From the IMG/VR virus record IMGVR_UViG_2778261056_000002: DNA of 36,391 nt, one strand, 5' to 3'. The notes under the pieces were generated by a model, which was not told the DNA's origin, did no database searches, and saw nothing but the letters and a program-made list of their open reading frames with translations. This DNA is from a virus. Taxonomy: Duplodnaviria > Heunggongvirae > Uroviricota > Caudoviricetes. This document shows positions 17,774 through 33,563 of this stretch, piece by piece; position 1 is the first letter of the stretch, and every line of letters begins with the position of its first letter. The position numbers and the translations under genes are program-made.

Positions 17774-19414
17774 TTACCATCCTCCTGAACCAAAACGCCC
17801 GCCACGGTCACGCCCGGTGCTGCGTGGGGTGTGTATCTGAAATTTTGCGCTGCGCGATACCGCCAGCGTCCACAGCATGTGCAGACAGTCCGGGCCATCA
17901 TCGTGGTCGGCTTTGGGGTAGTGGCGCAGCTGGTCAATCAGTGTCTGATGTGTGTGACTGATGCGGATCAGGCCGTTGGCCATATGCGGCTGAAGGGATT
18001 CGATACGCAGCGCCTTATCCTCCAGCGGGATGACCGGCAGCGCCGGAACCGGCACACCCAGCGCCGCCGAACGCTCAACCAGCACGGTACGCAGAAACTC
18101 CTGAAACTGGACGGACTCAAACGACCAGCACAGGCAGTGATATTCACGCTGATACTTGATCACGTCTTCGATAAGTTTATTCGGCAGACGTCGGCGGATA
18201 TCGGCTTCAACCACATCCAGAATGCCGGTAAAGCGGTTAAAGCCCCCCACGAGAATGGCCGACGGGTCGCGGTTTTTATTCTTCTTCCCGAGGCTGGGGT
18301 CAACAGCGCCGTAGAACACCCATTCATCAAGACGGTTAACCCAGAACTTAATGCAGCCCGCAAACAGCGCATCTTCACCGCTGACCGGGTCGTTCTGGTA
18401 TTCAGAATCAAAGGTGTCATGACCGTCACGAACACGGATTTTCATCAGTGCCAGCAGGGGACGCGCCGCCCATGACACCACCGACCCGGCGAGCATGTCG
18501 GCTTCGTTCTGTCGGTAAAGTGCCTCCGCTGCTTCCGGCTGTTTGTTGCGGATGAGTTCTTCCCACTCGTCCCACAGCTTCATATTGGCAGGCCACTGAA
18601 TAACGGCCTTAAAGCGGGCTGTTTTCCACATCGGGTTATTCAGCGTGCGCGACAGCACGGAGTCGTAATGCAGGATGGTTCCGATATAAATAATATCGGT
18701 TTTACCGCCAGCCTCGCCCAGCGGCATCACGGTTTTGGTGAGCCAGTCATGCAGCTTGTCGCGCTGCTCCGGGTTACGCACCATCTCGTCGTTCTCGATG
18801 TCGTCGAGGATAACCAGGTCAGGACGGTACGGACCGTGGCGCAGACCACGCAGCTTTTTACCACTACCGGCAACGGTCACCTTGATATTGTTGGCCGTGA
18901 CGATGGTCCCCATACGCCAGACGCGACCCTGCCCGCACACCTCCGGGAAATCGTTTTTTAAACGGGGGTTAAATTCCAGTTCAGCCTTGATGGCTTCCAG
19001 CATCGGATAAGCCTGGTCGATACTGTCCATAATGATGACCGGATAATGCTTAATGGCCCGGATAATGTTCCACAGGGTAAACAACTGAGTCACCAGCGTG
19101 GATTTTGCTTCACCACGGGGGGCGGCGATGGCGTCGTTCTCCGGGGCCGGGCTTGCCACAACCTGTGGCAGACGGCTGAACAGGTATTTATGCAGCTCAC
19201 TTTTTGCCGGGTTGCGGACGTAATGCGGGAAATAGTTTTCGACAAAATAATCGTAGCCCGTCACCGGATCGCAGACTGCCGCCCGGCGGGCCTGTGTGGC
19301 CTGTGGGTTAACATCGAACCCCAGACATTCAGCCTCAATGGTCTGGCGGAGGTTGGCGATGTACTCCTGCAGGCTTCTCTGAAACTCTTTAATGGAAAGT
19401 TTACGTTTTGCCAC
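17774..19414 (-). CDS. Terminase large subunit (Mu gp28-like)
   Basis: ORF track gives 17774..19471 starting at TTG; that start overlaps the methyltransferase gene by 56 nt. A GTG at about 19414, 1 nt after the methyltransferase stop and preceded by AGGTG, is the more plausible start. Confidence 0.8.
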   Translation of the reverse strand: MAKRKLSIKEFQRSLQEYIANLRQTIEAECLGFDVNPQATQARRAAVCDPVTGYDYFVENYFPHYVRNPAKSELHKYLFSRLPQVVASPAPENDAIAAPRGEAKSTLVTQLFTLWNIIRAIKHYPVIIMDSIDQAYPMLEAIKAELEFNPRLKNDFPEVCGQGRVWRMGTIVTANNIKVTVAGSGKKLRGLRHGPYRPDLVILDDIENDEMVRNPEQRDKLHDWLTKTVMPLGEAGGKTDIIYIGTILHYDSVLSRTLNNPMWKTARFKAVIQWPANMKLWDEWEELIRNKQPEAAEALYRQNEADMLAGSVVSWAARPLLALMKIRVRDGHDTFDSEYQNDPVSGEDALFAGCIKFWVNRLDEWVFYGAVDPSLGKKNKNRDPSAILVGGFNRFTGILDVVEADIRRRLPNKLIEDVIKYQREYHCLCWSFESVQFQEFLRTVLVERSAALGVPVPALPVIPLEDKALRIESLQPHMANGLIRISHTHQTLIDQLRHYPKADHDDGPDCLHMLWTLAVSRSAKFQIHTPRSTGRDRGGRFGSGGW

Positions 19415-19415
19415 G

Positions 19416-20156
19416 TCACACCTGCGCTGCTTCTGCCTGCGCTTTTTCGAGACGTGCGCAAGCGATATCAAAATACTGGTTAGTCATTTCAATGCCGGTA
19501 AACCGTCCGCCACGGGCAAGTACAGGGATGGCGGTGGTGCCGCTTCCCATAAACGGATCGAGAACGTGCGCATCCGGTGCCAGCGGTTTAACCAGCTCGG
19601 ACATCAGCTGAACCGGCTTTGCCGTCATGTGCAGTTTTTCGGACGGGACAACACGCTGCGTAATCACACCCGGGAACGGGCCACCGTGCGGGCATTTGTC
19701 GAGTTTTCCGTTGCTGCCCCAGACCACATACTCGGCCTGATGCCGGAAATAGCCGGTGTGTGGCGCACGGGAAGCCTGCGTTTTATCCCAGACAACCAGA
19801 CCACGCCACAGCACACCACCGGCCTGAAATGCATCGGTAAGCGCTGGTAGTTGTCGCCAGTCACTGAACACCATGAAATAACCGCCGGGATTCAGCCTGT
19901 GCAATGCATGAGATATCCACATGGAACACCAGAACGCCCAGCTGCGCTGGTCGCGGTTGTCGCCGGTGAACTCGGCATACTGAGTGTGACCGACATACTT
20001 GTCCGAAGGGGCCATGCTGCGGTCTGATTTGTGTGTGCCACCACTGCTGTAAGGCGGGTCGGTAATGACGGCATCAAAACGTTCAGATAACGCTGGCAGC
20101 ACATCAAGAACATCACCGCAATACAACGTTGCGTTACCAATAATCTGTTTTTGCAT
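19416..20156 (-). CDS. DNA methyltransferase, beta-class amino-MTase (DPPY motif before FxGSG motif; probably N6-adenine)
   Basis: 246 aa; VITDPPYSS (motif IV) near the N-terminus and DPFMGSGTT (motif I) near the C-terminus; no adjacent restriction endonuclease. Confidence 0.8.
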   Translation of the reverse strand: MQKQIIGNATLYCGDVLDVLPALSERFDAVITDPPYSSGGTHKSDRSMAPSDKYVGHTQYAEFTGDNRDQRSWAFWCSMWISHALHRLNPGGYFMVFSDWRQLPALTDAFQAGGVLWRGLVVWDKTQASRAPHTGYFRHQAEYVVWGSNGKLDKCPHGGPFPGVITQRVVPSEKLHMTAKPVQLMSELVKPLAPDAHVLDPFMGSGTTAIPVLARGGRFTGIEMTNQYFDIACARLEKAQAEAAQV

Positions 20157-20202
20157 TACAAATCCCGAATATCAGACGGCCCGGAAAACCGGGCCGCTGT
20201 GG

Positions 20203-20703
20203 TTAACTGAAATTATCCTCAAGCTCTTTAGCGAAGCCTTCGAGCACCTCAAGAAACGGGGCATACTGTGCCGGGTGACGCTCCTTGATGAACGCGCCGA
20301 GCCGCTGCACCACTTCCAGTGCCGTGGCGAGCCGGTCGGTTTCCGGCAGGATTTTTTTACTGCTGGCCACCGCCTTACTGAGACTGTCAGACAGACTCGC
20401 CAGCAGTTCGACGGACTCCTGCGGCGGGATGTCCGGGTTCTGGTTCAGCCGTTCAAGCGTCGTCTGACACTTCACCACCAGACTGATAAGCACGGTGCGG
20501 GCGACACTTTCCAGCCCGTCACCGGCGAGCGCGTGCGCGGCCCGCAGCTTGTCCCAGTCGTCGCCGTTCTTCATCGCCTGCGTTTTCCAGCGCCGCGCGG
20601 TGTCGTGCGGCACGGCGTACTTCATGGCGACGATATCCAGCGGAAGCTGGTCAAAGATGTACCCGTTACGGACTTTGTCCCTGATATCCTGTGACCACGC
20701 CAT
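20203..20703 (-). CDS. Terminase small subunit-like protein (Mu gp27 position)
   Basis: 166 aa ORF upstream of terminase large subunit. Confidence 0.5.
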   Translation of the reverse strand: MAWSQDIRDKVRNGYIFDQLPLDIVAMKYAVPHDTARRWKTQAMKNGDDWDKLRAAHALAGDGLESVARTVLISLVVKCQTTLERLNQNPDIPPQESVELLASLSDSLSKAVASSKKILPETDRLATALEVVQRLGAFIKERHPAQYAPFLEVLEGFAKELEDNFS

Positions 20704-20909
20704 TAAGTGTCCTTCTGAGCCTGTTCAATCAGGCATTTAACTTCGTCGGGATTTTCAAGAACATACACGTTTTTCCCGGTATCCAGCTCAATGATCGTGC
20801 CACCATATGCACCACACTGACGGTAAAAATGGGTGATGCGTTCAGCGACTACCATGACAGCGCTGGTGCTCCCTGAGCCTGCGCATTCTGTAAATCTGAT
20901 AATGCTCAC
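20703..20909 (-). CDS. Hypothetical protein
   Basis: 68 aa ORF between lysis and packaging genes. Confidence 0.4.
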   Translation of the reverse strand: MSIIRFTECAGSGSTSAVMVVAERITHFYRQCGAYGGTIIELDTGKNVYVLENPDEVKCLIEQAQKDT

Positions 20910-20929: not shown

Positions 20930-21115
20930 TCAGTTCTGTGATGAACACTGCCGGATGCCGTCAATAATCCGGCAGACCTGCGCCGCCGCGTCAAACAGCT
21001 GGCCCGCCCTGTTAATGTCTGTGCATCCCACCGGAAGCAACATCATCAGAAACAGGGCCAGAACACAGCGCGCGGCTTTACGTGGCGTTCTGTGTGTCCA
21101 GTGCTGACGCGTCAT
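20930..21115 (-). CDS. Small lipoprotein, candidate o-spanin (Rz1-like)
   Basis: 61 aa; basic n-region, hydrophobic core and VGC lipobox-like site (ALFLMMLLPVGCT); start overlaps endolysin stop. Confidence 0.45.
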   Translation of the reverse strand: MTRQHWTHRTPRKAARCVLALFLMMLLPVGCTDINRAGQLFDAAAQVCRIIDGIRQCSSQN

Positions 21116-22319: not shown

Positions 22320-22501
22320 GAGTTTCTCCTGTAAATCTGAGCCACTGACGGCCCGTAAATAACACCCTGTCAAAGGCACATAAGCCTTTTGCAGGGCGCT
22401 ATCCCTTAAGGTGCCTTGTGGTCTGAGTGGACAGGGTAAACGGTCTGGTGTGGTGGGTACTGCTGGGGGAGTTCAGCACCCCGCGGCGGCGGGGTGATAA
22501 A

Positions 22502-22780
22502 TCAGAAGCGGGAAAGAGAATCAGGCGTAATAAGAGGTTTATTACAAAGCGGAGCAGAGGCGTTCGCCTTTTCCATCGCTGCGCGCATCTCGTTTTCGCT
22601 GGCGATGATGTCAGCAATGGCACACTGCAACGCTTCTTCCTGAACAACCATATCCGGTTGTTCAGCCATTCGGTTTAGCTGGCTGGCCAGATTTTTCATA
22701 TAAGCGAAGCGGCGTCCGGCAGCATCCCTGGCCTGCTCTGAGTAGGCTGTATACTCGCCAAGTGCCGTATAGTTGGTCAT
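22502..22780 (-). CDS. Hypothetical protein
   Basis: Track ORF 22502..22813; an internal ATG with AAGGAG 7 nt upstream gives a 92 aa product. Confidence 0.4.
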   Translation of the reverse strand: MTNYTALGEYTAYSEQARDAAGRRFAYMKNLASQLNRMAEQPDMVVQEEALQCAIADIIASENEMRAAMEKANASAPLCNKPLITPDSLSRF

Positions 22781-22805
22781 AAGTGTCTCCTTTTTCTGAG
22801 GCCCA

Positions 22806-23273
22806 TTAATCAAAAAGCCCCACCTGGGTGGGGCTTTTCAGCGAAGTCTGTTTTTGTCGTCGGTGTATCAGCTGCCATGCGTACCGGTCTGAAATGCCGT
22901 AACGGGGACAGAGCAGTGCCAGCGCCTGCCGGTGTGAGCATCCGTCTTTTACATGCTGCTGTAAATCAGCCATAAAACGGGTGTTACGCAGGGCACGTAA
23001 CGCATGATCGCAACGGGGAATGTAAAACGGAGCACCGCCAAGAAAGCGGATCAGTTTGTTGATTTCGTCTTCGGTCAGCACGTCATGTAACAGGGCATGG
23101 ACACCGCCGGTGCGTTCGGCGTGTGCGCCGGTTTTACCGCTTAACGTCACGCCACCAAAAGAACGGATTAACCGGGTCAGGGCGGGGAAGCCAATCACGC
23201 TAATCAGTTGCTGCACGGAATCGGGCAGCAGTGCCTGCGCATCGCGAAGATCTGTTTCACTGAAGGTCTGCAT
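22806..23273 (-). CDS. Mor/C-family transcriptional activator
   Basis: 155 aa; position between early-operon terminator and lysis genes; sequence recognised as Mor/C family. Confidence 0.7.
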   Translation of the reverse strand: MQTFSETDLRDAQALLPDSVQQLISVIGFPALTRLIRSFGGVTLSGKTGAHAERTGGVHALLHDVLTEDEINKLIRFLGGAPFYIPRCDHALRALRNTRFMADLQQHVKDGCSHRQALALLCPRYGISDRYAWQLIHRRQKQTSLKSPTQVGLFD

Positions 23274-32733: not shown

Positions 32734-32826
32734 TAGGTTACCCTTAAAAGTTATCCGTGCGGATAACACCGCCGTGTTATCCCTTCGGATACAAGTATTG
32801 ATCCATATGTAGCCCATGTAAAGCAA

Positions 32827-32915: not shown

Positions 32916-33563
32916 ATGACCAGAAATGATGATGCTTTTTCTTTTGTCGACCGGGGAAAAGAAAGTTTCAGAGAGCGTTTAGTAAAGCTGATAGGTAACC
33001 GCAGTGTCAGAACTGCTGCGAGTGATTGGGGAATTCCCCCTTCAACCTTAAACAACTACATTCATAAAGGAACTGAGCCTTCTTTTAAAATAGCTTGCCT
33101 TATCTCAGATAAAGAGCAGGTGAGCTTAAATTGGCTCGCTTACGGTAAGGAACCCAACGCCAAAGAAGGTTCTCTATCAAATCAAACAGCGCAGCCTTCT
33201 CCCGATATTACAAACGAGCTAGTTAACGAGTTATTGAAAAGAGCGTCCACAGAAGTTAAGGAGCAACTGATAAGTGCAATATGCGATATGGGCATTAAAG
33301 GAATCTTGGAACGCCTACAGCAACCCACCAGGCAAGCTACGCAGGCCGACAGCGACCTGGACGAACTGGAGAATGCCATCAGAAGACTAAACATCAGGGA
33401 ATCGCTTAAAGACACTATTTGCATGGCATTGGCTGGTAATGAAGAAATTGACAAAGAGATTTTGCGTCGTATCGAATCTCGTATACGAGCTGGGTCGCCG
33501 AGTGGTCATACCGTTGCCACGCCGGAGCAAGAAACGAAGCCTGTAAGCAAAAAATCAGCATGA
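32916..33563 (+). CDS. Prophage repressor (HTH, Mu c position)
   Basis: 215 aa; N-terminal HTH (VRTAASDWGIPPSTLNNYIHKGTEPSFKIACLISDKEQVSLNWLAYGK); only phage gene on the plus strand, transcribed toward the prophage end. Confidence 0.65.
   Translation: MTRNDDAFSFVDRGKESFRERLVKLIGNRSVRTAASDWGIPPSTLNNYIHKGTEPSFKIACLISDKEQVSLNWLAYGKEPNAKEGSLSNQTAQPSPDITNELVNELLKRASTEVKEQLISAICDMGIKGILERLQQPTRQATQADSDLDELENAIRRLNIRESLKDTICMALAGNEEIDKEILRRIESRIRAGSPSGHTVATPEQETKPVSKKSA

Follow-up and report, generated by a model that had tools for sequence, protein, structure and literature searches.

What does a DNA methyltransferase gene do when it lies between the two terminase genes of a transposable phage? 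We examined this question for a stretch of 36,391 nucleotides (IMG/VR record IMGVR_UViG_2778261056_000002, here called the window), which is a Mu-like transposable prophage of Escherichia coli with genes for MuA, MuB, Mor, GemA, Portal_Mu and Mu-type head and tail proteins. We consider it probable that the gene encodes a functional solitary beta-class enzyme, most probably an N6-adenine methyltransferase, and that it forms an optional one-gene cassette in the late lysis-packaging operon. The features of the locus are the following:

17774..19414, minus strand: terL, large terminase subunit (PHROG 38, 9e-143; TIGR01630; terL label in RefSeq on identical copies)
19416..20156, minus strand: gene for the solitary beta-class DNA amino-methyltransferase (here named MTase), an ORF of 246 amino acids with an ATG start and a TGA stop
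19419..19423, minus strand: AGGTG, Shine-Dalgarno-like element of terL within the last two MTase codons, kept in MTase-less siblings
19425..20167, minus strand: segment of 743 nt confined to MTase-carrying prophages; siblings without the gene have 7 nt (TGTATAC) at this place, a net difference of 736 bp
19533..19553, minus strand: AdoMet-binding motif I, FMGSGTT (amino acids 202 to 208), inside conserved LDPFMGS
20049..20060, minus strand: catalytic motif IV, DPPY (amino acids 33 to 36), inside the family-invariant TDPPYSSG
20177..20196, minus strand: conserved GC hairpin, on the mRNA strand CGGCCCGG-UUUU-CCGGGCCG, 5 nt past the terS stop in the gap between terS and the MTase gene
20203..20703, minus strand: DUF1804 protein, putative small terminase or DNA-binding subunit (terS; Pfam DUF1804, 2.8e-52; PHROG 756, "DNA binding protein")

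The encoded protein is a beta-class DNA amino-methyltransferase. Motif IV lies N-terminal to motif I, which is the circularly permuted order of this class, and TDPPYSSG and LDPF.GS showed no variation in alignments of 14 and 30 homologues. The protein matched Pfam PF01555 N6_N4_Mtase (1.3e-24, 87.8 bits, with a gathering cutoff of 26.7), PHROG 67 (2.9e-54) and the PADLOC model MTase_II PDLC03321 (5e-65), while PDB profile searches returned M1.HpyAVI over the full length (1e-29) as well as CcrM and M.BceJIV, all of them m6A enzymes. An AlphaFold2 (AF2) model (pLDDT 84.5, pTM 0.83) revealed a class I Rossmann-like fold that can be superposed on solved members, with no separate recognition domain; Foldseek ranked CcrM first (3.9e-16, TM 0.75), with M.BceJIV and M1.HpyAVI close to it and MboIIA, RsrI and PvuII as further matches. 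The original prediction of a beta-class amino-methyltransferase with DPPY followed by FMGSGTT is thus upheld by motif order, Pfam, PDB profiles and Foldseek; the strand needs correction, as the gene is on the minus strand. Judged from DPPY and the best matches, the methylated base is likely N6-adenine, with N4-cytosine enzymes also among the matches. A homology search had been suggested as a route to the target specificity, but no target could be inferred from characterized enzymes, which are at most 25% identical.

The enzyme is solitary. RefSeq annotation of the whole prophage contained no partner endonuclease in the 743-nt cassette or elsewhere in the element, and PADLOC and Pfam found no restriction, defense or nuclease matches among the other, unassigned prophage ORFs, in agreement with what had been predicted. 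Genes for another type of DNA modification were likewise not found: neither Mu Com nor Mu Mom had a tblastn match below E = 1 in the window or in two related prophages (L001 and L065), an MTase-less sibling included. A megablast search of 50,697 phage records returned no DNA match to the locus, and the element is on record solely as a prophage. At its right end, the near-identical prophage copy L001 has no more than a 31-amino-acid Gin remnant, so the prophage studied here may be defective and perhaps never packages DNA.

The gene order in the late lysis-packaging operon is holin, endolysin, terS, MTase, terL and portal. Upstream, the MTase gene adjoins the DUF1804 gene, which is at a Mu gp27-like position, and downstream it adjoins terL. 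The predicted location between terminase genes therefore stands, as does the identity of terL, but the name "small terminase" is putative and taken only from DUF1804 membership and position. The MTase stop codon (TGA, 19418..19416) is separated from the terL start codon (GTG, 19414..19412) by 1 nt, exactly as predicted, and the gap between terS and the MTase gene measures 46 nt; RefSeq start codons on near-identical copies agree with those used here. The sequence CAGGTGTGAC-GTG at the terL start is common to MTase-carrying and MTase-less forms, and CAGG(N)GTAA is common to relatives. With its ribosome binding site overlapping the last MTase codons, terL appears to be translationally coupled to the MTase gene. 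A crude sigma-70 consensus scan found nothing promoter-like in the gap between terS and the MTase gene or close to it; since the scan was crude, a weak internal promoter could still exist and allow expression in the lysogen. The tight packing of co-directional late genes, the lack of a promoter-like site and the overlap with the terL ribosome binding site point to late co-expression of the MTase.

Comparison of the window with the MTase-less prophage of E. coli UMNF18 defined the cassette junctions. The MTase gene is present in 36 of 55 E. coli genomes that have this terS-terL region, and the remaining 19 lack exactly 736 bp between flanks that are 97 to 99% identical. A similar ratio was found in IMG/VR (13 records with the gene and 7 without), and a clade at 77% identity is also polymorphic, with one prophage lacking the gene (L052) and six carrying it (L004, L013, L014, L051, L053 and L054). 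The clean 736-bp presence/absence among such similar prophages supports the MTase gene as an optional accessory cassette of insertion type, where the event may have been a gain or a loss, and is in line with the earlier description of the gene as "inserted" between terS and terL. Simple deletion between direct repeats was rejected as the source of the MTase-less form: the junctions have only the terL ribosome binding site region and TTTGTA in common, which leaves TAC unexplained. A pseudogene in relatives, which had been named as evidence against a function, did not appear; the 15 copies examined were intact without exception, and their dN/dS values of 0.07 to 0.30 indicate purifying selection. 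No substitute methyltransferase is annotated in MTase-less UMNF18. With about one-third of the sibling prophages lacking the gene and no annotated substitute, any benefit of the MTase would be conditional. In relatives, the terS-terL junction also carries unrelated cargo.

The perfect GC hairpin of 7 to 8 bp that had been noticed at about 20177..20196 is real. Read on the plus strand as CGGCCCGG-AAAA-CCGGGCCG, it has 8 perfect pairs, all of them G-C, and a 4-nt loop. It is unique in the window and did not occur in 100 shuffles, and the surrounding 76 nt fold at -25.7 kcal/mol (z = -3.5). Its supposed tie to the MTase insertion was not borne out, as siblings without the MTase gene and relatives at 77% identity both have the hairpin in unchanged form, directly upstream of whatever gene comes next. 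Because it is also present where the MTase gene is missing, it lies outside the cassette, and its being a piece of the cassette was ruled out. Among 8 relatives, loops vary and 7 stem pairs are invariant, with the stem register shifted by one pair between clades; no stem pair covaries in this set, in which the stem is invariant, and no Rfam family matched at E <= 1. With its 3' tail in the window, UCUGAUAUU, the hairpin was not called by a simple terminator scan; tails in relatives are UUUUCAAUU, AUUUCAUUU and UUUCACUAUUU. By its distribution, the hairpin is a conserved element of the region downstream of terS, independent of the cassette, and it most plausibly acts as a leaky terminator or attenuator, or as an mRNA 3' stabilizer, that sets the dose of downstream genes.

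Furthermore, we analyzed where the same methyltransferase family is found in other phages. The family is widespread, with more than 7,500 homologues and 671 phage records, and members with 51 to 80% identity occupy other late or end slots of Mu-like, P2-like and lambdoid phages. Holin and lysozyme genes flank it in a Salmonella Mu-like prophage, and HNH-terS-terL follows it directly in a lambdoid prophage of E. coli. In P2-like elements it comes after the Com gene (phage Chuche) or after a Gin-like invertase (a prophage). Burkholderia phage KS5 has a homologous gene, gp20, after its Com gene (PMC3091744). In a Serratia prophage whose baseplate is of the Mu Gp48 type, a homologue of 61% identity follows the tail-fiber assembly genes, with a hexapeptide-repeat gene between them; judged from the adjoining host genes, this homologue appears to be at the prophage end, which would be the mom position. 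More distant homologues (46 to 47% identity by tblastn) occur in Mycobacterium phages. The putative DNA-contact loops (R130, P132, H133, G135-YFRHQ, K53 and Y54) do not vary across the aligned set, which ranges from enterobacterial members to those of Bordetella. A literature search found no paper that mentions the MTase protein accessions or "Bpm methyltransferase."

Most likely, the MTase gene is an ordinary phage accessory gene whose product modifies progeny DNA so that host restriction enzymes spare it. Transcription of the MTase gene would start at the late promoter of the genes from holin to portal, and the lack of a promoter of its own, together with its position 1 nt upstream of terL with the ribosome binding site in its last codons, suggests that this would happen only after induction. 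Shortly before headful packaging, the enzyme would add methyl groups to phage DNA during its replication and to the adjoining host DNA, and the modified DNA in the particles would resist restriction in the next host, much as Mom serves Mu. The hairpin, independent of the cassette, would set the dose of the genes downstream. The identity, fold and motifs of the enzyme, its solitary status, the cassette boundaries, the polymorphism, the intactness of the copies and the recurrence of the family in late or end slots of phages are observed, whereas enzyme activity, methylated base, target, expression timing, protective role and the function of the hairpin are putative.

Protection could also be of a broader kind. 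The MTase may be a "Mom substitute" of relaxed specificity that modifies a very short motif or nearly context-free adenines and thereby protects as widely as Hia5/Hin1523 and M.EcoGII, a reading that we regard as unlikely. Precedents for such enzymes exist (PMC3299994 and PMC5778455), mom and com are absent from the prophage, and the family is found in mom-like slots, namely after the Gin-like invertase, after Com and at the apparent prophage end past the tail-fiber genes. The enzyme is also very small and has no recognition domain of its own. The invariant contact loops and the Mycobacterium phage homologues argue for a single conserved specificity of use in widely differing hosts, but a fixed site of 4 to 6 bp predicts conserved loops equally well. 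In addition, homology to the Dam-like Hia5 stops at the fold, an M.EcoGII-type enzyme has only generic motifs in common with the MTase, and the closest solved relatives are sequence specific, CcrM recognizing GANTC and M.BceJIV GTWWAC. An extended form of this reading, in which the family arose independently as a third lineage of Mom substitutes with broad specificity and a very short or degenerate adenine motif, moves among interchangeable late slots and is kept at a low, safe dose by a leaky-terminator hairpin, is in our view similarly doubtful. The slots considered there are the lysis cassette, the terS-terL gap and the places that follow Com or Gin.

The restriction-protection reading was also weighed against alternatives that concern the modified base or the role of methylation. 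Methylation of cytosine at N4 in place of adenine at N6 is quite unlikely. PF01555 includes both activities, rotifer N4CMT (1.7e-13) and M.PvuII are among the profile and structure matches, and the KS5 study did not commit itself to either base for the homologous gp20 (PMC3091744). The best full-length and structural matches of the MTase are m6A enzymes, however. Its motif IV is DPPY, which is typical of adenine enzymes, whereas N4-cytosine enzymes usually have SPPY/F. We consider it very unlikely that the MTase is an epigenetic regulator in the lysogen, changing host or prophage expression as a form of lysogenic conversion rather than protecting virion DNA. Orphan enzymes of the same structural class, such as M.BceJIV and CcrM, do regulate genes, and links between methyltransferases of prophages and phenotypes of their hosts have been described (bioRxiv 10.1101/2024.04.17.589803), but the MTase gene is embedded in a late operon with gaps of 46 nt upstream and 1 nt downstream and no promoter-like site, related prophage enzymes are silent in lysogens (PMC5778455), and elsewhere the family is found in modules of late or structural genes. 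The position between terS and terL would be explained if methylation licensed or timed the action of terminase on phage DNA. In phage P1, Dam methylation of pac has this effect, and here the gene is exactly between the terminase genes with terL seemingly coupled to it, while the lambdoid prophage homologue lies directly upstream of HNH-terS-terL. Such a link is nevertheless highly improbable: 19 of the 55 siblings have terS and terL that are 97 to 99% identical and no MTase, so packaging does not depend on the enzyme, and in other phages the family occurs in lysis, tail or early modules. The unrelated cargo at the terS-terL junction of relatives also speaks against it.

Solitary phage methyltransferases are a well-known means of counter-defense, and the MTase adds a member rather than a principle. 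What the locus offers is natural matched pairs, i.e., Mu-like prophages of 97 to 99% identity with and without the 743-nt cassette, including a copy in the enteropathogenic E. coli (EPEC) reference strain E2348/69, which make a clean test of the anti-restriction benefit feasible. The presence of the family in slots otherwise used by com-mom supports the view that Mom-type and methyltransferase-type protection modules are interchangeable in transposable and P2-like phages. If the target of this widespread family were very short or relaxed, it would be of interest to users of Hia5 and M.EcoGII.

Among solved structures, M1.HpyAVI (5HEK/5HFJ), CcrM (6PBD), M.BceJIV (8URK) and M.MboIIA (1G60) have the fold and motif order of the MTase (Foldseek E values of 4e-16 to 1e-12, TM 0.65 to 0.75). 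At 18 to 24% identity and with recognition loops that do not align confidently, their specificities are not transferable to it. Closer in sequence are Bpm of Bordetella phage BPP-1, KS5 gp20 and the Chuche methyltransferase, which belong to the same PHROG 67 family; the MTase is 53% identical to Bpm and 53.6% to the Chuche enzyme over about 94% of its length. Like the MTase, these enzymes have about 250 amino acids, invariant motifs and no partner endonuclease, and we found no published specificity for any of the three. Their slots differ: bpm follows cro in the early region, and the Chuche and KS5 genes follow the Com translational regulator in the tail region, in contrast to the terS-terL slot without Com described here.

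In Mu-like prophages that lack mom, genes for DNA adenine methyltransferases are known to take its place (Drozdz et al. 2012, PMC3299994). The same study described Hia5, Hin1523 and Nma1821 as non-specific m6A methyltransferases homologous to Dam, DpnM and T4 Dam. The situation is alike in that a mom-less Mu-like transposable prophage encodes a solitary DPPY amino-methyltransferase with a presumed anti-restriction role. Hia5, however, has the Dam-like (alpha) order, with FxGxG first and DPPY near amino acid 194 (near residue 190 for the family as a whole), whereas DPPY is at amino acid 33 and FxGxG at amino acid 202 in the MTase, and the genes of the Hia5 group are at the right-end mom slot instead of between terS and terL. 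Membership of the MTase in this group was rejected, given the reversed motif order and PDB matches to beta-class enzymes rather than Dam. M.EcoGII and M.EcoGI, which are silent in lysogens (Murray et al. 2018, PMC5778455), are beta-class, encoded by E. coli prophages and solitary like the MTase, although M.EcoGII is longer (349 versus 246 amino acids). An M.EcoGII-type assignment was rejected as well: the 352-amino-acid enzyme of phage 1720a-02 shares only 34% identity over 56 amino acids plus the DPPY region, all of it generic motifs. The gene of that enzyme lies between Q and stx in a lambdoid Stx-type phage. A functional parallel would be com-mom of Mu, a late-expressed, non-essential modification that guards the virion DNA of a transposable phage. 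Mom and Com are unrelated to the MTase in sequence, the modification is acetamido/carbamoylmethyl instead of methyl, and neither Com nor a dedicated promoter is evident here; in other phages, members of the MTase family replace mom, after Com or after a Gin-like invertase.

The methyltransferase gene (MTase) lies between a putative small and the large terminase gene of what is a Mu-like transposable prophage of E. coli:

19416..20156, minus strand: MTase ORF, 246 amino acids, ATG start
20203..20703, upstream of the MTase: DUF1804 protein, here terS (Pfam, 2.8e-52; PHROG 756, "DNA binding protein")
17774..19414, downstream of the MTase: large terminase, terL (PHROG 38, 9e-143; TIGR01630)

The DUF1804 protein is labeled a putative small terminase only from its family and its position, that of Mu gp27, and terL is followed by a Mu-type portal gene (PF06074, 6.6e-95). 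A single nucleotide separates the MTase stop (TGA, 19418..19416) from the terL start (GTG, 19414..19412), as originally predicted, and the RefSeq annotation of near-identical copies has identical boundaries. A 99.9% identical copy of the prophage in strain GPEC349-628 encodes a Mu transposase, a MuB-like ATPase, a Mor-family activator, and GemA/gp16, together with holins, a GH108 endolysin, and Mu-type head, sheath, and baseplate genes; no DNA-level match to the window prophage was found among deposited phage genomes. Between endolysin and terS, the minus strand also carries a 61-amino-acid ORF with a lipobox-like LLPVGC (20930..21115; possibly a spanin) and a 68-amino-acid ORF conserved in relatives (20703..20909; PHROG 7691). 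Elsewhere, an 18-nt inverted repeat (32752..32791; 83% complementary, 4-nt spacer) between a divergent repressor-like gene (32916..33563, plus strand) and the upstream early HTH gene is a candidate operator.

The original prediction of a beta-class amino-methyltransferase with DPPY followed by FMGSGTT agrees with the ORF, with its PF01555 score (87.8 bits against a Pfam cutoff of 26.7), and with the motif order: DPPY at residues 33 to 36 and FMGSGTT at residues 202 to 208 place motif IV ahead of motif I, as in beta-class enzymes. PHROG 67 and the PADLOC type II methyltransferase model (5e-65) also match. A profile of 30 homologues found M1.HpyAVI first (1e-29, full length), followed by CcrM, M.BceJIV, M.MboIIA, a rotifer N4C enzyme, M.RsrI, and M.PvuII, and the AlphaFold model (pLDDT 84.5, pTM 0.83) superposes on CcrM, M.BceJIV, and M1.HpyAVI (Foldseek E values of 4e-16 to 5e-15; TM up to 0.75). 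Two low-confidence loops of the model, residues 39 to 68 and 126 to 140, coincide with the family-invariant residues K53, Y54, R130, P132, H133, and G135-YFRHQ and are likely DNA-contact loops that are disordered without DNA. The methylated base is probably adenine N6, since the enzyme has DPPY and its best matches are m6A enzymes; N4-cytosine is the less likely base. Because identity to any characterized enzyme is at most 25%, the target sequence is not predictable.

A search of 5,426 complete E. coli genomes for the terS-terL region yielded 55 carriers. The MTase is present in 36 of them, including EPEC E2348/69, and absent from 19, in which the flanks are 97 to 99% identical and exactly 736 bp are missing from the match; the gene had been described as inserted between the terminase genes, and this clean presence/absence pattern upholds the wording. 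Among IMG/VR contigs the proportion is the same (13 carriers, 7 non-carriers). Common to both forms are the terS stop, a hairpin, and TCTGATATT on one side and the terL ribosome-binding region and start, CAGGTGTGAC-GTG, on the other, with 743 nt (19425..20167) in the MTase form versus TGTATAC in the MTase-less form. The last two MTase codons and stop therefore fall within a terL ribosome-binding region that both forms possess. In relatives, the sequence upstream of the MTase start (GGGGGAATG-ATG) resembles that before terL (AGGGGTAATT-GTG), and this likeness suggests exchange, by gain or loss, at a ribosome-binding-site-like microhomology. Presence/absence polymorphism recurs in a clade with ~77% terS identity, in which L052 lacks the gene, and prophages of Citrobacter, Intestinirhabdus, and Buttiauxella carry a 75 to 80% identical MTase in the same slot. 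None was found there in more distant Mu-like prophages (54 to 56% terS identity).

Related Mu-like prophages use this junction as a cargo hot spot, and some relatives carry unrelated cargo there: a lipoprotein-like ORF (MKKMVKKICVCLAVLVLSAC...) at L051:1886-2258, ~500 extra nt at L054:4495-4992 (both from the ~77% clade), and three small ORFs, one of 159 amino acids on the opposite strand, in a Salmonella prophage (L006:7529-8759). In strain UMNF18 (L065), the MTase-less sibling lies between genes of other prophages, with tail fibre genes at one flank and baseplate, capsid, and head-protease genes at the opposite one; it evidently transposed into a resident prophage.

The gene had also been called an orphan, and indeed the cassette contains the MTase alone and no endonuclease or defense-type protein was detected among the other unassigned ORFs of the prophage. 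In the UMNF18 sibling, no substitute is annotated. Decay to a pseudogene in relatives, raised with the original prediction, was not seen: all 15 extracted copies are intact, with ORFs of 738 to 744 nt. Relative to the window allele, dN/dS is 0.07 to 0.30, compared with 0.015 to 0.06 for terL, and the MTase is constrained, though more loosely than terL. Its GC content (55.7%) is like that of its neighbors. The E. coli alleles fall into two types, that of the window and that of E2348/69, which differ by a dense patch of ~15 substitutions at residues 64 to 109 (19830..19967), located in the helix and strand that follow motif IV; these main differences lie outside the presumed recognition loops. 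Flanks 99% identical around the patch point to a recombination mosaic inside the gene. At the right prophage end of the GPEC349-628 copy, outside the window, a Gin-like invertase is reduced to its first 31 codons beside host ydcA (L001:621-713), and no com, mom, or clear right end was found there. This copy may be truncated and defective, and the window prophage may be defective as well; even so, the family-wide constraint argues that the MTase is used in functional relatives.

The hairpin in the 46-nt terS-MTase gap, CGGCCCGG-(A/U)4-CCGGGCCG (20177..20196), forms eight perfect G-C pairs, occurs nowhere else in the window, and was found in 0 of 100 shuffles; with its surroundings (76 nt), it folds at -25.7 kcal/mol (z = -3.5). 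MTase-less siblings carry an identical hairpin, save for one loop variant (TCTT), and it is therefore no feature of the MTase insertion. The ~77% clade keeps the stem GGCCCGG/CCGGGCC with loops ACCT, ACTC, AACGT, AACAAT, and TTCT, the 8-bp register differing by one pair between clades. No covariation was found across the relatives compared, because the stem never varies, and no Rfam family matched. In every case, the hairpin is found just ahead of the next gene, MTase or terL; in L051 the extra ORF stands between terS and the hairpin. Downstream of the hairpin, relatives have a U-rich tract (UUUUCAAUU and similar) as well as a strong GGGGGA ribosome-binding site; the tail in the window (UCUGAUAUU) failed a simple terminator rule. 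With slightly less than even confidence, we regard it as a leaky intrinsic terminator/attenuator or a 3' stabilizer for the lysis-terS message. The predicted hairpin is thus real and its proposed modulation of read-through reasonable, but terL is equally concerned.

From the holin (~22319) to the portal, genes are co-directional and tightly packed, and no sigma-70-like site was found in or near the 46-nt gap. On the minus strand, a strong, perfect 12-bp hairpin followed by a T-run, AAAAGCCCCACC-ca-GGTGGGGCTTTT (22813..22838), overlaps the stop of the Mor/C-family activator gene (22806..23273) and looks like a middle-operon terminator just ahead of the late genes. A second GC hairpin, CACCCCGC-cgcc-GCGGGGTG (22472..22501), directly follows a 103-amino-acid ORF (22502..22813; PHROG 7152), with ~150 nt of noncoding sequence between it and the holin. 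The late promoter is expected within these ~150 nt. The MTase would be transcribed as part of the late lysis-packaging operon, its product would methylate replicating phage DNA shortly ahead of headful packaging, and virion DNA would thereby be protected in the next host. As a precedent, M.EcoGI and M.EcoGII stay silent in lysogens, with switch-on at induction presumed (PMC5778455).

Relatives of the MTase occur in 671 phage records. Homologues with 51 to 64% identity have the following placements:

Salmonella Mu-like prophage: between holin and lysozyme
E. coli HK97-type lambdoid prophage: directly upstream of HNH-terS-terL
P2-like Escherichia phage Chuche: directly after a "gpCom control of modification" gene
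P2-like prophage: directly after a Gin-like invertase
Serratia prophage with Mu Gp48-type baseplate: after tail-fibre assembly genes plus a hexapeptide-repeat gene, beside host genes
Delftia P2-like prophage: apparent end, beside host genes
Bordetella phage BPP-1: after cro (Bpm)

We read the Serratia homologue as lying at the prophage end, which would equal the mom position in Mu. In Burkholderia phage KS5, gp20, likened to the MTase by PF01555 membership and equal size, is placed after Com (PMC3091744). With these varied placements and many records, the MTase behaves as a mobile accessory ("moron"-type) gene that usually resides in a slot expressed late or lying at the genome end; several phages have the family in the place that com-mom holds in Mu.

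Mom-less Mu-like prophages have adenine methyltransferases instead (PMC3299994). Com/Mom is ruled out for the MTase, and the window prophage has neither Mom nor Com. The Hia5/Hin1523/Nma1821 family, with its alpha/Dam-like motif order and a different slot, was likewise rejected, as was the M.EcoGII family, which has only generic motifs in common with the MTase. That the MTase is a compact, broad-specificity Mom substitute seems to us improbable. Dozens of genomes already have the gene labeled as a DNA methyltransferase by RefSeq, and the proposed biology is textbook for phages; our literature search found no publications on this protein or on the terS-terL slot. Three points are mildly new: a cassette cleanly present or absent between the terS and terL genes of Mu-like prophages, evidence that this family and com-mom-type positions alternate, and a conserved hairpin that forms a fixed boundary beside variable cargo. 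The MTase belongs to the beta-class N6_N4 methyltransferases and, among phage families, to the large PHROG 67; by analogy, it would resemble other solitary phage methyltransferases in its working and Mu Mom in its outcome.
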